NCBI GenBank assembly: GCA_043747595.1
Contig: JAYTOX010000055.1
Coordinates: 1,254 to 65,253, forward strand
Direction of reading: 5' to 3'
DNA: 64,000 nt
Source: Bacteroidota bacterium
Lineage (GTDB): Bacteria; Bacteroidota; Bacteroidia; AKYH767-A; 2013-40CM-41-45
Shown one piece after another: positions 55,411 to 64,000 of this stretch (positions are counted from its first letter, which is position 1; each line of letters begins with the position of its first letter). The notes under the pieces were generated by a model. That model was not told the origin of the DNA. It was given only the letters and a program-made list of their open reading frames with translations, and made no database searches. The position numbers and the translations under genes are program-made.

Positions 55411-55437
55411 GATAATGGTTAGTTTGTTTAATACAGA

Positions 55438-55461
55438 GCCTTCCTTCGGGGAGGCTTTTTT
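55438..55461 (+). terminator. Intrinsic terminator after the YqgE-family gene
   Basis: gccttcc-ttcg-gggaggc followed by TTTTTT. Confidence 0.65.
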
Positions 55462-55541
55462 ATTTTAATAATTGCTTAAGTAGTTTAACTTTGTAGAGTG
55501 AACACCGCACAAACTCCCAAGTTCTCTTAACCACTATTCTA

Positions 55542-58500
55542 ATGAAAAAAAAATTACTGAATTCTCTATTATTATTATTGATCCTAAGTACCAGTTCTTC
55601 AAACGGAGGCGATCTTTTCAAACTAATTTCTTCCTTTAAAGAAAAAGGTCTTTTTAGAAATGAAGCGAAATCACTCTTTGACGTTTCTCAATTTAAAAAT
55701 ACTGAACTCGATCGTTCACTTTCCTCCTATCGTTTGTTGGAATTGAACAAATCAGTAGTACAACAAATTTTAAACGAACAGCCTAACTATTTATTAATAA
55801 ACTTACCGAATCCTGACGGCAGTGGTATTATTACGCTCGAACTAATCAAGAAAGAGATTTATACCGGAGGTTTTAAATTAATTACGAGTCGCGCTTCTAC
55901 CGAAAAAGAAATTTCATTCTGCAACTATCAAGGAATCGTTTCAGGGAACAGTGAGTCGATGGCAGCGATTTCATTTTCTGCAAACGAAGTGATGGGACTC
56001 ATTGCTACAGAAAAAGGTAATTACAATCTCGGAAAACTTTCAAAAGACAATTCAGGAAATTATATTTTTTACAATGATGTTAATTTGAAAAGTACAATTC
56101 CTTTTCAATGCGGAGCAACATCTAGTTACCGTAGAACAAAACCCGGAATCCGTATCAACAATCCAAATACAAGTGCATCTACAAAATGTGTAAATTTTTA
56201 TTGGGAAACCGATCAAGATATTTTTACCGACAAAGGAACTGTTGGTGCAGTTACAACTTATATAAACGGAATTTTTAATCAAGTGTCTGCTGAATATGCC
56301 AATGATGGAATCACTGCGAAATTAAATACACTTTACGTTTGGAATTCTATTGATCCTTATGTTGGTCCGGCCTCCAACGATTATCTCGATCAATTTGGAA
56401 CCAACAGAACTTCATTCACAGGCGACCTTGCTACACTCTTAGGCTACAATGGAGGTGGTGGTGTTGCTTGGTTAGATGTACTGTGCGATCCAACACTGAG
56501 TTATCACATGGCATATACAGGAATCAATGCAAATTATAATAACATACCCACTTATAGTTGGACTGTTGAAGTAGTTTCACATGAGCAAGGACACAATCTC
56601 GGATCATCACATACACACGATTGTGTTTGGAATGGAAATGCAACGGCCATCGACGGCTGCGGACCGAATGCAGGTTATGCATCCGATCCTTTAGGATGTG
56701 CACAAGGACCCATTCCTGCCAAAGGAACAATTATGAGTTATTGTCATCTTTCTCCAAATACAGGAATAAGTTTAGCACTCGGATTTGGATCACAACCTAA
56801 AACACTTATTCAAAATCGGATTGCAGCTTCAACATGTTTAACAATTTGCAGTGCAACAAATGATGATCCGTGTACAGCCACAACACTTACAGTTGGAACA
56901 AGCTGTTCACCGGTTTCAGGCGACAATACCGCAGCAACAAATTCAACAGTTCCAGCTGTGTCATGCGATGGAAACGGTGATGGCGATGTTTGGTTCTCTG
57001 CAGTGGTACCAGCGTCTGGAGTAATCGAAATAAATACGATGGCAGGAACGCTAACAGATATGGGCATGGCAATATATAGCGGAACGTGTTCTTCACTTAC
57101 ATTGATTAACTGTTATGCCGGTGGAAATGCAACAACACCCACAATGCCTCGAGCAATTGTAAGCAACCAAAGTGCAGGAACAACTATATGGATTCGAATG
57201 TGGGATGTGAATAATGACGAAGTAGGAACATTTCAAATATGTGCAGTGAATCCTTGTTCAGCAAGTGTTTCCATCACAGGAGCAAGTTCTGCTTGTAGTA
57301 CAAATGTTACACAACTTTGTGCAAGTCCAAGTTTCACAAGTTATTCTTGGTCGAATGGTGCAACAACACAATGCATTACTCCCGGTGCATCAGGAACATT
57401 TACTGTAACCGTTACCGATGCAAATGGATGTACAGCAAGCGCATCAAAATCTTTCACAATAAACAATTCACCTACGGTAACATTGACCGGCGTAACTGCT
57501 GCTTGTTTAAATACAAATCCTTCACTCTGTACAGGCACAACATACACACAATATGCATGGTCGAATGGAGGTACTACACAATGTATTAATCCGCCATCAT
57601 CAGGTACATACTCGGTTACAGTAACCAATGCAAGCGGATGTACAGGAACTGCATCAAGAGCCGTTACAATTTATCCAAACTTTACGCCGGCAGTTACAGG
57701 CGCCGATTCATCTTGCACTATATTACCTGGAACATTATGTTCAAGTACAGGAAATAGTTATAGTTGGTCGAGTGGACAAACAACACAATGTATTAATCCG
57801 AGTACATCAGGAAATTATGTTGTTACAGTTACGAATGCTAATGGATGTACCGCCACCGCTTCAAAATCTACAATCGTTTACACGAATCCTACAGCAGCAA
57901 TAACAGGCCCTACAAGTGCTTGTAACGGATCAACAGTTCAGTTGTGTACAAACAGTGGAAGTTATTCTTATGCATGGTCAAATGCAGCAACAGCAATGTG
58001 TATCAATTTAACTGCTACAGGAAATTACACTGCTACAATTACAGATACACATGGTTGTACATCTTCTGCTTCACAAACAGTAACGTTTGGAAATTCACTA
58101 TCAGTAAATATAACAGGACCATCGCAGGCTTGTCCCAATACAGGTGCACAATTATGTGCGGATGCCGGTTTTGCAAATTATTTATGGTCGAGCGGACAAA
58201 CAACAGCATGCATTACACCAACATTGAATGGAACATATACTGTTAGAGCAAGTGATAACAGTGGCTGTTCGGCAACCAGTTCTGCGACAATAAATTTTTA
58301 CTCAGTTACACCGGTTACAGTGAGTGGACCAACTAGTGGGTGTGCGAATTCATTTCCACAATTATGTGCATCATCAGGGTATGCATCTTATTTATGGTCA
58401 TCGACACAAACATCACAATGCATTACACCACCTTCTCCGGGAGGAAGTTTTTCTGTGATTGCGACAGATGCGAATGGTTGCACAAGTAGTGCTTCACAAA

Positions 58501-60470
58501 GTTTAACAGTATTGAACAATCCATCACTAAGTATTTCAGGTCCGGGAATAGTTTGTCCGGGAACTCCTGCTATGTTATGTGCTTCTACAAATGGTAACGC
58601 TATCTCTTGGTCAACTGCAGAAAGTACAGCATGTATTAGCGTTCCTGATTCAGGATCATACACAGCTACTGCATCAGCAACCAATGGTTGTACATCCACT
58701 TTAAATTACCACTTGAATTATTATTCTGTACCTACACCAGTAATTAGTGGACCGGCAACAGCATGTTTCGGTACAACAGCTCAACTTTGCGCACCGGTTG
58801 GTTACACCATTTATTCATGGTCGAGCGGACAAACAACACGATGCATCAATGTTACAGCTGCAGGAAATTATATTGTTACATTAACCGATGTAAATGGATG
58901 TACTTCAACAGCGAATCAATCAATCACTTTCGGCGCAAATTTAAATTTATCGATTACAGGTCCAACCGGAATTTGTTTTGGCCAGAGTATTCAATTATGC
59001 GCTACCACTGTTGGTACAACACAATGGTCTAATGGTTCCATTTCACAATGTATTACAATTACTAGTGGAGGAAATTATAACGTAACAGTAACCGATCTTA
59101 ACGGTTGTTCGGCATCATCATCACGATCAATAACAAGTTACCCCGCATTTTCTGCAACTGTTACAGGACCATCGACCGCATGTTATGGAACAAATGTTCA
59201 GTACTGCTCGCCGGCAGGAACCGGATATCAATATAGTTGGTCGACAGGTGCAACAACACGATGTATAAATACAAGCACATCCGGAATTTACACCGTTACT
59301 ATTACCAATACAAATGGATGTACAGCGAGTAGTTCGCAAGGACTCACAATTTTTTCGCAGTTGAATTCGACTATCACCGGACCAACATCACTTTGTGTAG
59401 GAGCAGTTGGGCAACTATGTGCACCAACAGGAAGTTCATTGTATCAATGGTCGACCGGAAGTACTGCACGATGTATTAGTGTAAATTCGTCGGGAAATTA
59501 TACCGTAACAATTACAGGAGCCAATGGATGTACAGCGAGTAATACGGCAGTAGTAACTTTTTCAAATTCTATCACTACTACAATTACCGGAAGTCATACT
59601 CCATGTGCGGGAAGTGTTTTACAGTTATGTGTACCTACAGGCTATGCCGACTATGCATGGAATACAGGAGCAACAACAGAATGTATTTCCGTAACAGCCA
59701 ATGGAATTTATTCAGTAACGATTCACGATGCAGTTGGTTGCGTAGGTAACGATACACAGCTTGTGAGCTACTCGCCTATTCCACCCGTTACAATTACAGG
59801 GCCTAGCAATATTTGTACAGGAGCTTCAGAAACTTTGTGTGCTACGCAAGGATATCCAAGTTATGCTTGGAATGGAGGAAGTACACAATCATGTATAACA
59901 GTTAGTGGTGCAGGAAATTATTCAGTGATAGTGACCGATGCAAATGGTTGTACAAATTCTGCGACCAAAGGGGTGAGTGAAACAAATATTAATCCTTCCA
60001 TTTCGAACACAGCAAGCGGACTAGTAGCAACACCAACAGGAAGTCAATATACTTATTCGTGGTATTATAACGGTGCAACATTTACAGGATGTACAGGAGA
60101 TACATGTACACCGGTTCATACAGGAGATTATACAGTCGTGATTAACGATCAGAATTGGGGTTGTACTGATTCAGCAACCATTTATTATTTTTCGGTGGGA
60201 ATTGCAGCAGAGCAAGTAGTAGATCAAATAAAATTATTTCCGAATCCAATTTCTTCGAATTGGTTAAATGTTGCATTTGATTTTTCGGGTACAGAAAAAA
60301 TCAGTTTACAGATAACAAATGCGTTGGGCCAAGAGTTGGTTCAGAGTAATTTTGTAAAAGTGGGGACTATGACCAAGCAAATAAATTGTTCAGAATTGGC
60401 CGCGGGTATATATTTGGTGAATATTAAAGGGGAGAAATGGCAGAAGAGTTGGAAAATAGTGAAGCAATAA
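55542..60470 (+). CDS. T9SS-secreted giant protein: an N-terminal metzincin (reprolysin-like HExxHxxGxxH) zinc metalloprotease domain, about 13-14 tandem 70-aa four-Cys SprB-like repeats, and a Por-secretion C-terminal sorting domain
   Basis: Signal peptide. HEQGHNLGSSH with a downstream Met-turn (IMSY). The repeats carry Y-x-W-S-x-G-x-T-T-x-C-I ... G-x-Y-T-V-T-V-T-D-x-N-G-C-T, which matches the SprB-repeat pattern as I remember it. The C-terminal about 80 aa (KLFPNP...IYLVNIKG...) matches T9SS CTD features. Confidence 0.85.
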   Translation: MKKKLLNSLLLLLILSTSSSNGGDLFKLISSFKEKGLFRNEAKSLFDVSQFKNTELDRSLSSYRLLELNKSVVQQILNEQPNYLLINLPNPDGSGIITLELIKKEIYTGGFKLITSRASTEKEISFCNYQGIVSGNSESMAAISFSANEVMGLIATEKGNYNLGKLSKDNSGNYIFYNDVNLKSTIPFQCGATSSYRRTKPGIRINNPNTSASTKCVNFYWETDQDIFTDKGTVGAVTTYINGIFNQVSAEYANDGITAKLNTLYVWNSIDPYVGPASNDYLDQFGTNRTSFTGDLATLLGYNGGGGVAWLDVLCDPTLSYHMAYTGINANYNNIPTYSWTVEVVSHEQGHNLGSSHTHDCVWNGNATAIDGCGPNAGYASDPLGCAQGPIPAKGTIMSYCHLSPNTGISLALGFGSQPKTLIQNRIAASTCLTICSATNDDPCTATTLTVGTSCSPVSGDNTAATNSTVPAVSCDGNGDGDVWFSAVVPASGVIEINTMAGTLTDMGMAIYSGTCSSLTLINCYAGGNATTPTMPRAIVSNQSAGTTIWIRMWDVNNDEVGTFQICAVNPCSASVSITGASSACSTNVTQLCASPSFTSYSWSNGATTQCITPGASGTFTVTVTDANGCTASASKSFTINNSPTVTLTGVTAACLNTNPSLCTGTTYTQYAWSNGGTTQCINPPSSGTYSVTVTNASGCTGTASRAVTIYPNFTPAVTGADSSCTILPGTLCSSTGNSYSWSSGQTTQCINPSTSGNYVVTVTNANGCTATASKSTIVYTNPTAAITGPTSACNGSTVQLCTNSGSYSYAWSNAATAMCINLTATGNYTATITDTHGCTSSASQTVTFGNSLSVNITGPSQACPNTGAQLCADAGFANYLWSSGQTTACITPTLNGTYTVRASDNSGCSATSSATINFYSVTPVTVSGPTSGCANSFPQLCASSGYASYLWSSTQTSQCITPPSPGGSFSVIATDANGCTSSASQSLTVLNNPSLSISGPGIVCPGTPAMLCASTNGNAISWSTAESTACISVPDSGSYTATASATNGCTSTLNYHLNYYSVPTPVISGPATACFGTTAQLCAPVGYTIYSWSSGQTTRCINVTAAGNYIVTLTDVNGCTSTANQSITFGANLNLSITGPTGICFGQSIQLCATTVGTTQWSNGSISQCITITSGGNYNVTVTDLNGCSASSSRSITSYPAFSATVTGPSTACYGTNVQYCSPAGTGYQYSWSTGATTRCINTSTSGIYTVTITNTNGCTASSSQGLTIFSQLNSTITGPTSLCVGAVGQLCAPTGSSLYQWSTGSTARCISVNSSGNYTVTITGANGCTASNTAVVTFSNSITTTITGSHTPCAGSVLQLCVPTGYADYAWNTGATTECISVTANGIYSVTIHDAVGCVGNDTQLVSYSPIPPVTITGPSNICTGASETLCATQGYPSYAWNGGSTQSCITVSGAGNYSVIVTDANGCTNSATKGVSETNINPSISNTASGLVATPTGSQYTYSWYYNGATFTGCTGDTCTPVHTGDYTVVINDQNWGCTDSATIYYFSVGIAAEQVVDQIKLFPNPISSNWLNVAFDFSGTEKISLQITNALGQELVQSNFVKVGTMTKQINCSELAAGIYLVNIKGEKWQKSWKIVKQ
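57240..60000 (+). repeat. Intragenic tandem array of about 210-bp units (encoding the 70-aa repeats)
   Basis: The period shows at the protein level. Copies have diverged to roughly half identity, so this is an old array rather than a recent expansion. It generates many spurious ORFs on both strands. Confidence 0.85.
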
Positions 60471-60979: not shown

Positions 60980-61135
60980 GTTTTTACTTGAAACCAGAAT
61001 TGCTTTTTAGGTTGGTTTTGATAAGTTGCAAAAACCTATAAAATCAAAAAGTAAATCAAGCTCCCTTTCCGCTTTTATCGGAGGTGGAAAATAAAACACA
61101 CTTATAGGATTATTTATAGGATATTTACGAACTTA

Positions 61136-64000
61136 TGGATACAAAAGATTATATAAACATATTCGAACAGTCTTCGGAATTGTTGGTTGTCATCGATACC
61201 AACTTTGCTATAGTGGCTGTATCTGATGCGTTTTTAAAAGCTACAACAACTGTAAGAGAAAATATTGTGGGGCGCAATGCCTTTGATGTGTTCCCAGATA
61301 ATCCTGATGATAAAACCGCAAATGGAGAAAGTATTGTACGGGCTTCTTTTAACCGGGTAATTAAAAATAAAACCAAGGATGTATTGCCTGTTGTAAAATA
61401 CGGTATTCCAAAACCGGAATCGGAGGGTGGCGGGTATGAACTGAAGTATTGGCAAGCAACTAGCTCGCCTATACTGGATGAGAATAATAATGTGAAATAT
61501 ATTATTCACCGGACTGAGGATGTTACAGAAAATAAAACCTTGATTACACAGCATGAGTTTGATAAAAAAGCGTTGAAACTAATTGCAGACAGCGAAAAGC
61601 GATACAACATGATGCTCATGAAATCGCCATTCGCTTTTGCTGTATTAAAAGGAAAAAACATGGTGATAACCCTTGCTAACGATTCCGTAAAAGAATTGTG
61701 GGGGAAAGGGAATGACTTGGAGGGAAAGCCTCTACTTGAAGTTTTGCCTGAGATTAAAGATACCGCATTTCCAGGTTTGCTTGATAAGGTGTACACCACA
61801 GGTACTCCCTTTTATGGAGATGAGCTGCTTGCTCCGATTTTGCGCAATGGTAAACTGGAAGATGTGTATTTCAATTTTGTTTATCAACCCTATCTTGAAG
61901 CAGACGAAACTATTTCGGGGGTTACTATAATTGCCATTGAAGTAACGAACGAAGTGATTGCAAAGAAAAAGATTAAAGCAAACGATGAATGGCTTCAAAA
62001 TATTTTATTGCAAGCACCTGCCGCCATTGCTGTTTTTGATGGACCGCAGCATAGGTTTGTTATGGCAAATCAGGCGTATCAAAAACAGAACAATCGCAAA
62101 GAAAAAGATTTTTTAGGTAAAAGTTTTCGTGAAGTATTTCCTGAATTGAAAAGCACCGGCTCTTTTGAGTTATTTGATAGTGTTTATGCAACCGGTGAAA
62201 CATTTACCGCAATCGAATATGGAGCAATGATTGACTCGGATAATAATGGTATCCCCAAACAGCATTATTTTAATTTTTCTTTGGAGGCGTTAAAAAACGA
62301 ATCTAAAGAAATATATGGCGTAATGGTTATGGCCTTCGATATTACAGAGCAGGTTGAAGCAAAAAAAATACTTGCAGAAAGCGAACAACGTTTTAGCAAT
62401 CTTATTTATACATCTCCATCAGCCATCGGCATTTTATTAGGAGAAGATTTGGTAATCACTATCGCTAATGAACCCATTATTGAAATTTGGGGAAAAGGAA
62501 AAGAGATAATGGGGAAGAAATGTTTTGAAGCGTTACCCGAACTGGCAGAACAAGGATATAAAGAAGTTTTTAACCAAGTGTATAAAACGGGAATACCTTT
62601 TAATGCAATTGAAACGCCTGTAAACATTTTGCAAAATGGAGTAACAACCCTCAAGTATTATAATTTTATTCTCTATCCGCAAAAAGATATAAATGGCGAA
62701 ATAAATGGCATTGGCATTATAGCTACAGAAGTTACATCACAGGCAAAATATAATTTACAAATAAAAGCAAGTGAGGAGCGTTTCAGGCTTTTGGCAATGC
62801 AAGCACCAGTCGCTATATGTGTAGTTCGCGGTAAAAAATATGTGGTCGAGATTGTCAATGCGGGAATGCTCGAAATTTGGGGCAGAACAGAGGCTCAGGT
62901 ATTAAACAAGCCTATATTTGAAGTACTCACAGAGCTTGATAATCAAGACTTTGAAGCACTGGTAGATGAGGTGTATTCAACAGGAGAAAGATTTGTAACA
63001 AATGAGCTTCCCCTAGCCATTCATCGAAACGGAAGATTGGAAGATTTATTTGTAAAATTCGTCTATGAGCCGTTGTGTGAAGCCGATGGAACTGTCTCTG
63101 GCGTGATGGTATTAGCACATGAAATTACGGAACAGGTTAATGCTCGCAAAAAAATTGAAAAAAATGAACATCGGTTTGAGGGAGCTATTTCTGCTGTTCA
63201 AGGGATTTTATGGACTAACAGTGCAATTGGCGAAATGATAGGCGAACAGTTAGCTTGGGCTTCACTTACCGGCCAAAGTTACGATGAGTATCAAGGCTTT
63301 GGATGGGCAAATGCCATTCATCCTGATGACGCTCAACCTACTATTGACGCTTGGAACGAAGCCGTTAGCGAGAGCAAGAACTTTATTTTTGAGCACCGCG
63401 TCCTATTGAAAAACGGTAACTGGGGAAATTTTTCTATTCGGGCAATTCCTTCTTTAAATTCCGAAGGGTTGATTCAGGAATGGATTGGTGTTCACACCGA
63501 TATTACCGAGCAGCGCCAGACAGAAAATGCACTAAAAAATGCAATCCACGAACAGAAAGAAGCAAAAAGTAAAGCAGAAGCCGCTGCACAAATAGCTGAG
63601 GAAGCAGTAAAAGCAAAACAGAAATTTTTGTCAAACATGAGTCATGAAATCCGAACACCTATGAATTCAATTATTGGGTTTACAAATGTGGTATTAAAAA
63701 CAGATTTAAATAAAAAACAAAAAGAATACATAAACGCAATTAAAGCATCGGGTGATGCTTTACTCGTTTTAATAAATGATATACTTGATCTTGCTAAAGT
63801 AGATGCAGGAAAAATGACCTTTGAGCAAATACCATTTAGTTTAATTGCCTCCATTTCCAGTATGATTCAGGTGTTTGAAAACAAATTACAGGAAAAAAAT
63901 TTAAAATTAGTTTCAGAGTATGACGTTTCTATTCCTGAAGTTTTAGAAGGCGACCCGATGCGTTTGCGTCAAATAATTTTAAACCTGATAAGTAATGCAG
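61136..64000 (+). CDS. Multi-PAS sensor histidine kinase, 3'-truncated by the window end
   Basis: The reading frame is open from the ATG at 61136 (an in-frame TAA is at 61052) to the window end. There are at least five PAS-like modules, each with the pattern (I/V)xxxxDIT(E/Q)Q. The HisKA H-box SHEIRTPMNSIIGF is at about 63640. The gene is absent from the ORF track because there is no stop codon in the window. Confidence 0.8.

Follow-up and report, generated by a model that had tools for sequence, protein, structure and literature searches.

A predicted ADAM-type zymogen protease on a long, putatively disulfide-braced rod of Ig-like repeats in an uncultured Bacteroidota bacterium

We analysed a 64,000-nucleotide stretch of DNA from a Bacteroidota bacterium (the window), in which one gene encodes a large secreted protein with a protease at one end and a type IX secretion system (T9SS) C-terminal sorting domain (CTD) at the other. 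The best explanation, which we consider probable, is that the product is a Sec/T9SS-exported ADAM-type zymogen protease with a long disulfide-braced rod between the protease and the C-terminal secretion and anchoring signal. As a secreted protein of Bacteroidota it is of an ordinary kind, and it is a typical member of a large annotated family; its sole unusual feature, as the comparative evidence says, is that the cysteines of the rod would bond each domain to its neighbour. The order of the modules is signal peptide, ADAM-type prodomain, catalytic domain, galactose-binding-domain-like module (GBD), 13 repeats with a degenerate 14th, and type A T9SS CTD. This confirms the observations of an initial, sequence-only reading, which had described a 1642-aa open reading frame with a metzincin, a middle domain, repeats and a CTD; its interpretation is upheld in part. 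The features are as follows.

55435..55458, forward strand: hairpin and T-run terminator of the upstream AlgH-like gene (10-bp stem, 5 GC pairs, T tail)
55486-55493: TAACTTTG, upstream of the protease gene, which we take to be a Bacteroidetes-type -7 promoter motif
55542..60470, forward strand: coding sequence of the protease-stalk protein, ATG start, 1642 aa and stop codon, complete
55542..55607, forward strand: Sec signal peptide, aa 1-22, MKKKLLNSLLLLLILSTSSSNG, recognised by inspection, with no lipobox Cys
55608..56177, forward strand: ADAM-type prodomain (aa 23-~195) and flexible linker (aa ~196-212)
56109-56111, forward strand: codon of the invariant Cys190 in 'PFQCG', candidate cysteine switch
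56178..56849, forward strand: reprolysin/adamalysin-like zinc metalloprotease catalytic domain, aa 213-436, with eight conserved Cys
56580-56612, forward strand: zinc motif HEQGHNLGSSH, aa 347-357
56733-56735, forward strand: codon of M398 in the Met-turn GTIMSY (aa 395-400), followed by C401
56850..57266, forward strand: GBD_T9SS_assoc (galactose-binding-domain-like) module, aa 437-575, PF23759
57267..59999, forward strand: 13 tandem Ig/PKD-like repeats, aa 576-1486, 69-71 aa each, with cysteines C1-C4
60000..60221, forward strand: degenerate 14th Ig-like unit, aa 1487-1560, without C1 and C2, C-terminal half only
60222..60467, forward strand: type A T9SS C-terminal sorting domain, aa 1561-1642, PF18962 and TIGR04183

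Given the terminator of the AlgH-like gene upstream, the protease gene is a transcription unit in its own right. The annotated neighbours at 46.3-64 kb of the window are housekeeping genes, and neither gliding nor PorP-like genes were found among the annotated neighbours. The orthologue L001 is collinear with the open reading frame and 89% identical to it, with no gaps. The signal peptide, as inspected, comprises MKKK, a hydrophobic run and a polar SSSNG stretch, the N-termini of the orthologues being equivalent; in the AF2 model this region forms an N-terminal helix (aa 2-15).

The head is predicted to be an active zinc endopeptidase of the ADAM/adamalysin (reprolysin-like, M12B-like) type, made as a zymogen. 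In the Pfam scan, the catalytic domain matched Reprolysin_5 (55.3 bits, cut-off 27), Reprolysin_3 (37.3 bits, cut-off 22.4) and Reprolysin_2 (33.2 bits, cut-off 27), and H347, E348, H351, H357, M398 and C190 are 100% conserved in 113 homologues, so that the metzincin with HExxH...H and a Met-turn claimed from the sequence is borne out. The longer motif HExxHxxGxxH stands for its His and Glu residues, which are invariant, but not for its Gly, as G354 is conserved at 94% in the same set and is replaced by Ala in several orthologues (P0002, P0004, P0006 and P0007). An Asp that immediately follows the third zinc His (HExxHxxGxxHD) typifies the adamalysin family; here this position is occupied by Thr, and the Asp is found three residues on, within the sequence H357-T358-H359-D360, where T358 and H359 are invariant in the 113 homologues. 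In its catalytic fold the head is nearer to ADAMs and to the metalloproteinases of snake venom than to the remaining families of metzincins. The AF2 model of the zymogen has pLDDT 84 and pTM 0.88, with pLDDT 50-70 around C190. The prodomain (aa 23-195) has no Pfam match, Pep_M12B_propep included. Cys190 probably caps the zinc as a cysteine switch, which would keep the zymogen latent.

The middle domain, earlier put at about 130 aa and left without a family, is indeed present at aa 437-575 and is now identified as GBD_T9SS_assoc, with a PF23759 match of 33.6 bits (cut-off 27, E 5.4e-8, profile positions 1-106 of 116). This 139-aa region has seven cysteines, namely six of the domain and C572 of the linker (codon 57255-57257); the tandem GBDs of P0014 have six Cys apiece. 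The linker cysteine, in a 'DPC/NPC' context, is kept in all orthologues, 13 aa ahead of the first C1.

The predicted number of 13-14 four-Cys repeats is also correct, there being 13 full ones and one degenerate. Each full repeat has four invariant Cys with spacings of 8, 17-19 and 19-20. Identity between the repeats of this protein is 26-56% (mean 42%), and Tandem Repeats Finder detected no nucleotide periodicity in the array. Since the repeat profile scores 1074 bits on this open reading frame and has no other match in the window, chance is excluded. The 14th unit, for which there is no Pfam match, keeps the C4-equivalent C1541 (codon 60162-60164), 116 aa past C1 of repeat 13, and also bears a local CxxxxC pair, C1517 and C1522; in P0004-P0007 the Cys at +115 is the sole one of the 14th-type unit.

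The repeats are Ig/PKD-like, and their nearest kin are the abundant two-Cys Ig_7-like repeats, not SprB as defined by the family's own model. The earlier assignment to SprB is thus not upheld: PF13573 (cut-off 28 bits) gave no match at E<=1 for the whole protein and none at E<=10 for five single repeats, and two SprB units of P0009, scanned as a control, scored 63.3 bits. This model spans the first half of the SprB unit, which is the half that the repeats do not share; the signature C.G...G.I......GG..PY.Y.W is absent, and the repeats read ITGP...C.G....LC......Y.W instead. The similarity between SprB-type units and the repeat profile (hhalign 98.7%, E 2.6e-16, 49% identity) covers only 43 columns (24-66), and both HMM and hhalign alignments begin at column 21-24. 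For the two-Cys Ig_7-like units the similarity extends over 68 of 70 columns (hhalign 99.3%, E 2.6e-20), and the repeat HMM matches the two-Cys units of P0048 and P0012 at columns 2-69 with 40-57 bits. The AF2 model of the repeats (pLDDT 93) is an Ig/PKD-like beta-sandwich, an outcome that the sequence-only reading itself had named as speaking against SprB, and the best structural match is the rod of GhpA. Profile comparison with PDB sequences gave marginal hits only, to titin Ig, a phage Ig-like protein, GhpA and collagenase PKD (E 1e-3 to 2e-2).

At E<=1e-3 the two-Cys family is very large, with 95,883 cluster representatives, and a single protein may have as many as 89 copies. Among its top 150 proteins, about 3.5% of the units of full length have the four-Cys form, and six-Cys units (P0144-type) also exist. 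The four-Cys form adds C2 and C3, reading QLC...QCI where the two-Cys units have TL.A...QSI. The Ig_7 model itself (PF19081, cut-off 27.3 bits) is not reached by the single repeats (10.6-12.5 bits), nor by the two-Cys relatives of P0048 (18-25 bits). Membership in PKD_6 (PF19408) was rejected at 14.1-16.3 bits against a cut-off of 25 and hhalign 25%, and the repeat HMM did not match the PKD_6 arrays of P0016, P0022 and P0055. BiPBP_C was rejected as well: its 34.7 bits are a sum, with no single stretch passing, and the motif G.Y.V.V.D..G falls on profile columns 66-87.

For the pairing of the cysteines there are two alternatives. If both C1-C4 and C2-C3 are conventional disulfides within one domain, the array would be a flexible string of self-stabilised beads, and losses of C1 and C4 should be coupled within a unit. 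Vice versa, if C1 of one repeat is bonded to C4 of the next, the coupling should cross the boundary between neighbours. The former was our first assumption, intradomain disulfides being the default in Ig-like domains; it agrees with the presence of both C1 and C4 in 5099 of 5300 units and in most terminal repeats of the arrays. We abandoned it on covariation, edge effects and the mapping of a known bond of GhpA, and now regard it as distinctly unlikely.

Cysteines were called with a tolerance of +/-2 residues, and the covariation anchors also capture SprB-type units. Across 5,300 units the loss of C1 in unit i is coupled to the loss of C4 in unit i+1 (odds ratio 389, p = 4e-56), these counts not being phylogenetically independent and P0256 and P0195 giving 21 of the 33 cross-boundary double losses. 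Within one unit, the losses of C1 and C4 are independent (odds 1.8, p = 0.25; 3 double vs 198 single losses), and isolated loss events couple forward only (i/i+1, n = 12; reverse, n = 0). The edges of the arrays show the same tendency: C1 is absent from 28/292 last repeats vs 38/4463 internal ones, and C4 from 17/292 first repeats vs 42/4463 internal ones. The SprB-type C1 ('C.G') and C4 ('GC') are equivalent to those of the repeats considered here and show the same neighbour coupling; their arrays alternate (C1+,C4-) and (C1-,C4+) units, e.g. in P0015, where intradomain pairing would leave a free thiol in every unit.

The cysteine counts of this protein also remain unexplained by intradomain bonds, as they are odd in both the GBD region (7) and unit 14 (3) and become even only given the bonds 572-630 and 1425-1541. 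Finally, the Cys2988-Cys3140 disulfide of GhpA was seen by cryo-EM (bioRxiv 10.1101/2024.01.29.577165). Its two cysteines fall on profile column 10 in one unit and on column 55 in the unit that follows, in the manner of C1(i)-C4(i+1), with the position of Cys3140 extrapolated by 7 columns in a low-scoring stretch of the alignment.

These observations indicate that C1 of repeat i is paired with C4 of repeat i+1, presumably by a disulfide, and that C2-C3 would be an extra intradomain bond. C2 and C3 occur together in 219 units, C2 alone in 5 and C3 alone in 2, and the pair is also met in lone four-Cys units within two-Cys arrays. The proposed inter-domain bonds of this protein are 585-700, 655-769, ... 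1355-1470, with a spacing of 114-116 aa, and the proposed terminal ones are C572-C630 (linker to repeat 1) and C1425-C1541 (repeat 13 to unit 14), the gap of the latter, 116 aa, matching the spacing in the array. The earlier suggestion of a disulfide-stabilised variant of the repeat is thus supported by Cys conservation and covariation.

The CTD was recognised as such from the beginning, and both models agree: Por_Secre_tail PF18962 scores 41.9 bits (cut-off 27, aa 1565-1639) and TIGR04183 47.8 bits (cut-off 23, aa 1565-1642). The CHU_C/type B model PF13585 gave no match in the Pfam scan. A local CTD profile scores 77.9 bits on this protein; together with the repeat profile, it found no other T9SS CTD or repeat genes among the open reading frames of the window. 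As the 64-kb window contains no T9SS machinery genes and the organism is an uncultured Bacteroidota, export and anchoring are deduced from the CTD alone. In many Bacteroidota, type A cargo is released, not anchored; many type A proteins outside Porphyromonas are released. Anchoring of type A cargo via anionic LPS is described (PMC9143113).

The protease module defines a family of more than 1,000 homologues (n = 1199), many of which join the M12 module to PF13573, PKD_6, fn3 or Ig_7 arrays and a T9SS CTD, as do those of Neolewinella persica and Lewinella cohaerens. Hence the statement that SprB-type repeats are not normally fused to proteases does not hold, fusions of M12 with PF13573 and other arrays being common in this set. 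A protease-less form (P0008 / L005) consists of a signal peptide, GBD, 11 repeats and CTD, and therefore the GBD and the stalk can work where no protease is present. Elsewhere, four-Cys arrays with the same CTD are headed at the N-terminus by other domains (Ice_binding PF11999, SdrD_B).

A survey of repeat number in homologues, which the sequence-only reading had proposed, shows variation from 9 to 13 among orthologues, with the distal and proximal units never lost. Repeat i matches repeat i of the orthologue at 54-86% identity vs 42% between repeats within the protein. Compared with the 89%-identical orthologue, dN/dS is 0.066 overall and 0.03-0.13 in every module, the most conserved part being the protease module (95% aa identity, dN/dS 0.08). 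Judged from these alignments, the array is old, its repeats being positionally orthologous, and is under purifying selection (dN/dS 0.07), as had been supposed from the divergence of the repeats.

The protein could work as follows. In the periplasm it would be folded and oxidised, and the T9SS would export it via the CTD, which would be cleaved off, leaving the new C-terminus attached to the surface or released. The rod, if extended, would be about 45-55 nm long and, since the protein would be attached by its C-terminus, would carry the protease and the binding module at its far end. It would be covalently braced from C572 before repeat 1 to C1541 in unit 14, with an internal C2-C3 bond in each repeat that the common two-Cys relatives do not have. 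Removal of the prodomain by cleavage in the linker (aa ~196-212) would yield the active enzyme, which might degrade extracellular protein for nutrition or surface remodelling. A surface protease on a long stalk was one of the possibilities offered earlier, and it is the one that we favour too; the anchoring to the surface and the length and rigidity of the rod are all predicted.

Among the other readings, release of a soluble protease, whose array and GBD bind or swell the substrate as do the PKD domains of clostridial collagenases, deserves some weight, although we consider it unlikely. The release of much type A cargo agrees with it, as does cytophagalysin, a secreted gelatinase with eight Ig-like domains (PMC11674741). 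However, 13-14 chained domains of near-identical length far exceed the known binding arrays, unrelated heads ride the same stalk, the best structural match is a rod, and the repeat number varies without loss of the end units, as expected of a spacer.

SprB carries a type B CTD, and the type A CTD of this protein argues against a gliding-type adhesin of the SprB family that has acquired a protease, with adhesion or motility as the main function and proteolysis as a secondary one. Such an adhesin would account for the motif Y.WS.G.TT..I....G.Y.VTVTD.NGC common to SprB-type units and for the existence of the protease-less form, and SprB and GhpA are likewise T9SS cargo built of Ig-like repeats. 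Still, with PF13573 silent here, the likeness confined to 43 C-terminal columns, gliding and PorP-like genes absent beside the gene and the protease being the most conserved and family-defining module, we find this reading highly improbable. That the M12 module is a catalytically dead pseudo-protease serving as a binding head only is hardly credible: the Thr after the third His is atypical and activity is known for no member of the clade, but no variation is seen in the zinc ligands, the catalytic Glu or the Met-turn, the catalytic-domain dN/dS is low, and a latency prodomain, pointless for an inactive head, is kept. The idea was rejected on conservation and dN/dS. Thus, an exported zymogen protease on a braced rod remains the preferred reading.

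Taking all these data jointly, we lean, if only slightly, towards a broader view, in which the near-universal Cys pair of the Ig-like family of some 96,000 representatives in Bacteroidota, SprB-type units included, would form C1(i)-C4(i+1) bonds chaining all domains, and not intradomain bonds. The four-Cys subfamily would add the internal C2-C3 bond and serve as an interchangeable stalk that holds varied heads (an ADAM-type zymogen here, ice-binding-like ones elsewhere) tens of nm off the cell; as a corollary, the ADAM prodomain and catalytic fold would be widespread and native in Bacteroidota.

T9SS cargo is the main means by which Bacteroidota act on their surroundings, and Ig-like arrays, frequent in this cargo, are left largely unannotated by Pfam. 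If the cysteines chain neighbours, such arrays are rigid spacers of defined length and not flexible linkers, which would explain why orthologues vary in repeat number and reach with each repeat conserved; SprB-like filaments, adhesins and enzyme stalks would then be covalently braced rods, and their modelling would change. A full ADAM-like zymogen, prodomain fold included, is common in environmental Bacteroidota. Such a native fold would bear on the proposed mammalian ADAM origin of fragilysin, and would help the search for secreted proteases in metagenome-assembled genomes of wastewater and freshwater.

With profragilysin-3 (BFT; PDB 7pnd) the head shares 11% identity. BFT, encoded on a pathogenicity island, has neither a stalk nor a T9SS CTD; it is a small toxin with a 20-kDa mature metallopeptidase and has been called unique, its relationship to the ADAMs being only very distant (PMC9514063). 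The fold is similar to that of the ADAM17 zymogen (PDB 9o54, 8snl) and of adamalysin/reprolysin M12B proteases, although identity is only 18-21%, and this bacterial protein differs from them in the lack of disintegrin and Cys-rich domains, the Thr after the third His and the presence of a T9SS CTD. The SprB unit (about 75 aa vs 70 aa here) is homologous in its C-terminal two-thirds (Y.WS.G.T...I....G.Y.VTVTD.NGC), and the C2-C3 pair is extra in the present repeats.

GhpA, the Aureispira grappling hook (PDB 9flp), shows marginal sequence similarity to the repeats (E 0.01), with a period of about 80-97 aa vs 69-71 aa here. It is a 5898-aa heptameric hooked appendage with no enzyme, anchored by PorP/PorE-like partners encoded nearby, none of which is found beside the present gene; the rigidity of its stem is ascribed to disulfides between Ig-like domains (bioRxiv 10.1101/2024.01.29.577165). 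Cytophagalysin CPL1 and other T9SS metzincins (karilysin, mirolysin) are of the same design as the protein described here, with a signal peptide, a latency prosegment, a metzincin, a run of Ig-like domains and a C-terminal secretion domain, and CPL1 is a zymogen-activated gelatinase whose activity needs the catalytic Glu (PMC11674741).

The protein under study adds a new and uncharacterised member to the T9SS multidomain M12-like peptidases, a class that is large and well populated. Among its 1199 homologues (E<1e-5), most share the prodomain, the M12 module and the T9SS C-terminal domain, and differ in the part in between, which is formed by PKD_6 domains in Ferruginibacter and Chitinophagaceae, and by fn3, PPC or Ig_7 domains elsewhere. 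As true SprB arrays are situated between the protease and the tail in M12 homologues of Neolewinella persica, Lewinella cohaerens and others, the combination of a protease with a SprB-like array is routine; the premise of the sequence-only reading, that SprB repeats are normally not fused to proteases, does not hold, and a repeat-protease fusion is not unusual. SprB repeats are found in other enzymes too, e.g. fucoidanase Fhf1 (PMC7698502). The interest lies in general points beyond this one gene: evidence that conserved cysteines of the repeat family may bond neighbouring domains, a four-Cys stalk subtype absent from Pfam models, and a complete ADAM-type zymogen fold that is common in environmental Bacteroidota.

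The protease gene is monocistronic, and has the following surroundings:

55435-55458, strong terminator upstream of the protease gene
55486-55493, candidate -7 promoter motif TAACTTTG, a consensus match 49 nt upstream of the ATG
55542..60470, plus strand, protease ORF, ATG start, 1642 aa
60575-60939, plus strand, tmRNA (ssrA) with tag peptide GNNSYALAA*, 105 nt past the protease stop codon
60942-60979, terminator with a 17-bp stem after the tmRNA
61120-64000 and past the window edge, plus strand, large sensor histidine kinase of >960 aa with HisKA and six or more PAS-type domains

The promoter motif fits TAnnTTTG, the Bacteroidetes -7 consensus. A sigma-70-type scan upstream of the ATG yielded no promoter-like site, the single site in the interval being on the minus strand. 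The tmRNA also adjoins the protease gene in the orthologous locus L001, and is nearby, on the opposite strand, in the related loci L003 and L005. The neighbour genes are housekeeping ones, and no other T9SS cargo genes were found in the window.

The ORF was exactly as it had been described from the sequence, including its zinc motif (HEQGHNLGSSH, aa 347-357), Met-turn (GTIMSY, aa 395-400) and four-Cys repeats. Prodomain and catalytic domain alike are of the ADAM/adamalysin type; the prodomain has zero matches to Pfam models. Across 113 homologues, there is no variation in the three zinc-binding His (H347, H351, H357), in the catalytic E348, in the Met-turn M398 and in C190, which is located within a 'PF.CG' motif at the prodomain end. 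By analogy with ADAMs and MMPs, C190 is a candidate cysteine switch. Canonical adamalysins have Asp after the third His, whereas here it is an invariant Thr (HTHD). The middle domain, previously noticed as Cys- and Gly-rich, is a significant match to GBD_T9SS_assoc (PF23759; aa 437-575, 33.6 bits with a cut-off of 27), and the C-terminus, for which a T9SS sorting domain had been proposed, is one of type A, matching PF18962 (41.9 bits) and TIGR04183 (47.8 bits). BiPBP_C (PF06832) also reaches a summed 34.7 bits on the ORF, exceeding the 26.8-bit cut-off, yet no single stretch passes; this match is due to the repeated G.Y.V.V.D..G motif, is also listed among the precomputed Pfam matches for the orthologues, and could mislead automatic annotation.

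The stalk consists of two parts:

aa 576-1486, plus strand, 13 full repeats of 69-71 aa each, with four invariant Cys (C1-C4) spaced 8 / 17-19 / 19-20
aa 1487-1560, plus strand, degenerate 14th unit directly after repeat 13

On the protease ORF, a profile made from all 13 repeats reaches 1074 bits; it has no other match in the window. Pairwise identity among the repeats is 26-56% (mean 42%), and Tandem Repeats Finder detected no nucleotide periodicity of the array. The repeats had been called SprB-like; however, PF13573 matched neither the whole protein (E<=1) nor single repeats (E<=10), while genuine SprB units of the homologue P0009, used as a control, score 63 bits, the 37-position model falling on the first half of the unit. 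Single repeats resemble PKD_6 (14-16 bits) and Ig_7 (10-12 bits) over the full length, but only with scores below threshold. The 13-repeat profile aligns with SprB-type units (P0009, P0011, P0015) mostly in columns ~21-65, with two-Cys repeats (P0048, P0012) in columns 2-69 (40-57 bits), and with PKD_6 arrays not at all. Similarly, hhalign yields 99.3% over 68 columns for two-Cys units, 98.7% over only 43 columns (24-66) for SprB-type units and 25% for PKD_6 units. Since PF13573 has no match and the similarity to SprB-type units is confined to columns 24-66, the repeats are not SprB in the strict sense.

In the first match set of 201 full-length units, all 107 units of the orthologue group have the pattern C-C-C-C, and every other unit is C--C or C---. 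Four-Cys units also build long arrays in unrelated T9SS cargo (top 150 family members). Such arrays, with 6-26 copies and unrelated heads, are seen in P0270, P0132, P0236, P0197, P0144 and P0226; by Pfam scan the head is Ice_binding (PF11999) in P0270 and P0132, to which the N-terminus of P0236 is similar, and P0197 has an SdrD_B module close to the C-terminus. Pfam annotates nothing over 1,300-2,000 aa of these arrays, hence the subtype has no Pfam model. P0144 (1743 aa) carries a six-Cys version, in which one additional Cys precedes ITG ('SC-LITGN') and another follows C4 ('GC.S.C'); this hints at one more bond per junction.

C2 and C3 occur together in 219 units, C2 alone in five and C3 alone in two, and lone four-Cys units are found inside two-Cys arrays; thus, C2-C3 is probably an intradomain pair, which, by the strand order of a structural model, would connect the point where strand B ends with that where strand E begins.

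For C1 and C4, the pair could be formed within a unit, or between C1 of one unit (i) and C4 of the next (i+1). Five observations at the sequence level point to the latter. Over 5,300 units, SprB-type units included, loss of C1 is independent of loss of C4 within a unit (C1/C4 states: ++ 5099, +- 65, -+ 133, -- 3; odds 1.8, p 0.25), and C1(i) and C4(i+1) are lost jointly (-- 33, +- 13, -+ 31; odds 389, p 4e-56). Isolated double losses, coming from five proteins, number 12 in the forward direction vs 0 in the reverse one. C1 is missing in 28/292 terminal units vs 38/4463 internal ones, and C4 in 17/292 initial units vs 42/4463 internal ones. The SprB-type arrays of P0015 (Neolewinella persica, aa ~700-1460), P0256 and P0195 strictly alternate (C1+,C4-) and (C1-,C4+), that is, the Cys pair is absent at every second junction; if the bond were intradomain, every unit there would have a free thiol. 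In the protein studied here, seven Cys are found in the GBD region; the additional one, C572, is in the linker ahead of repeat 1, and all orthologues keep it as 'DPC'. Of the three Cys of unit 14, C1541 sits 116 aa past the last C1, matching the 114-116 aa that separate C1(i) from C4(i+1) inside the array, and its equivalent is the sole Cys of unit 14 in the orthologues P0004-P0007.

Experimental support for C1(i)-C4(i+1) bonding comes from GhpA, the Aureispira grappling-hook protein with an Ig-like stem, in which cryo-EM showed a disulfide Cys2988-Cys3140 (bioRxiv 10.1101/2024.01.29.577165). In a profile alignment with GhpA, column 9 corresponds to residue 2987, placing C1 (column 10) at residue 2988; one unit further on, residue 3147 falls on column 62, and C4 (column 55) would be 3140 by extrapolation. 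Based on comparative inference, we propose 14 interdomain bonds (572-630, 585-700, ... 1425-1541) and 13 internal C2-C3 bonds.

True orthologues are confined to uncultured Bacteroidota MAGs (P0001-P0007, loci L001-L004) and have 13, 13, 13, 13, 11, 11 or 9 repeats, the shorter ones being without N-proximal repeats. Each repeat is closest to the same-position repeat of the orthologues (54-86% identity; mean 42% to neighbours), hence the array is old and is not homogenised by concerted evolution. Relative to the L001 orthologue (89% identical), dN/dS is 0.128 for the signal peptide and prodomain, 0.082 for the catalytic domain, 0.032 for GBD, 0.066 for the repeats, 0.073 for unit 14 and 0.102 for the C-terminal domain. 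The positional orthology and the low dN/dS in all modules (0.032-0.128) agree with the earlier suggestion of an old array under selection. The sequence-only reading was thus sound as an observation, and its interpretation stands for the protease, the T9SS tail and the old array, though not for SprB identity and an unusual fusion. In the protease-less P0008 (locus L005, 10001-13452), GBD_T9SS_assoc comes right after the signal peptide and is followed by 11 four-Cys repeats, then by unit 14 and the C-terminal domain, so GBD and the stalk are used without an enzyme head as well.

The analysis shows what the modules are, their folds, the conserved residues, the selection and the Cys covariation. 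The most likely mechanism as a whole, in which we infer latency, bonding chemistry, anchoring, rigidity and substrate, would start with Sec export, followed by folding and oxidation in the periplasm; folded substrates are, according to work cited in bioRxiv 10.1101/2024.01.29.577165, transported by T9SS. The latter would recognise the C-terminal domain, and export would be followed by processing and then by release or anchoring through anionic LPS, the attachment described for type A cargo in PMC9143113. With the C-terminal end proximal to the cell, the braced Ig rod, of an estimated ~45-55 nm at an assumed ~3.5-4 nm per domain, would keep GBD and the ADAM-like head distal, and the enzyme would be activated by a cut in the flexible linker after C190. 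A published analogue is cytophagalysin, in which eight Ig-like domains follow a signal peptide, a prosegment and a metzincin domain; its design equals that of the protein described here, but its catalytic domain is of the pappalysin type (PMC11674741).
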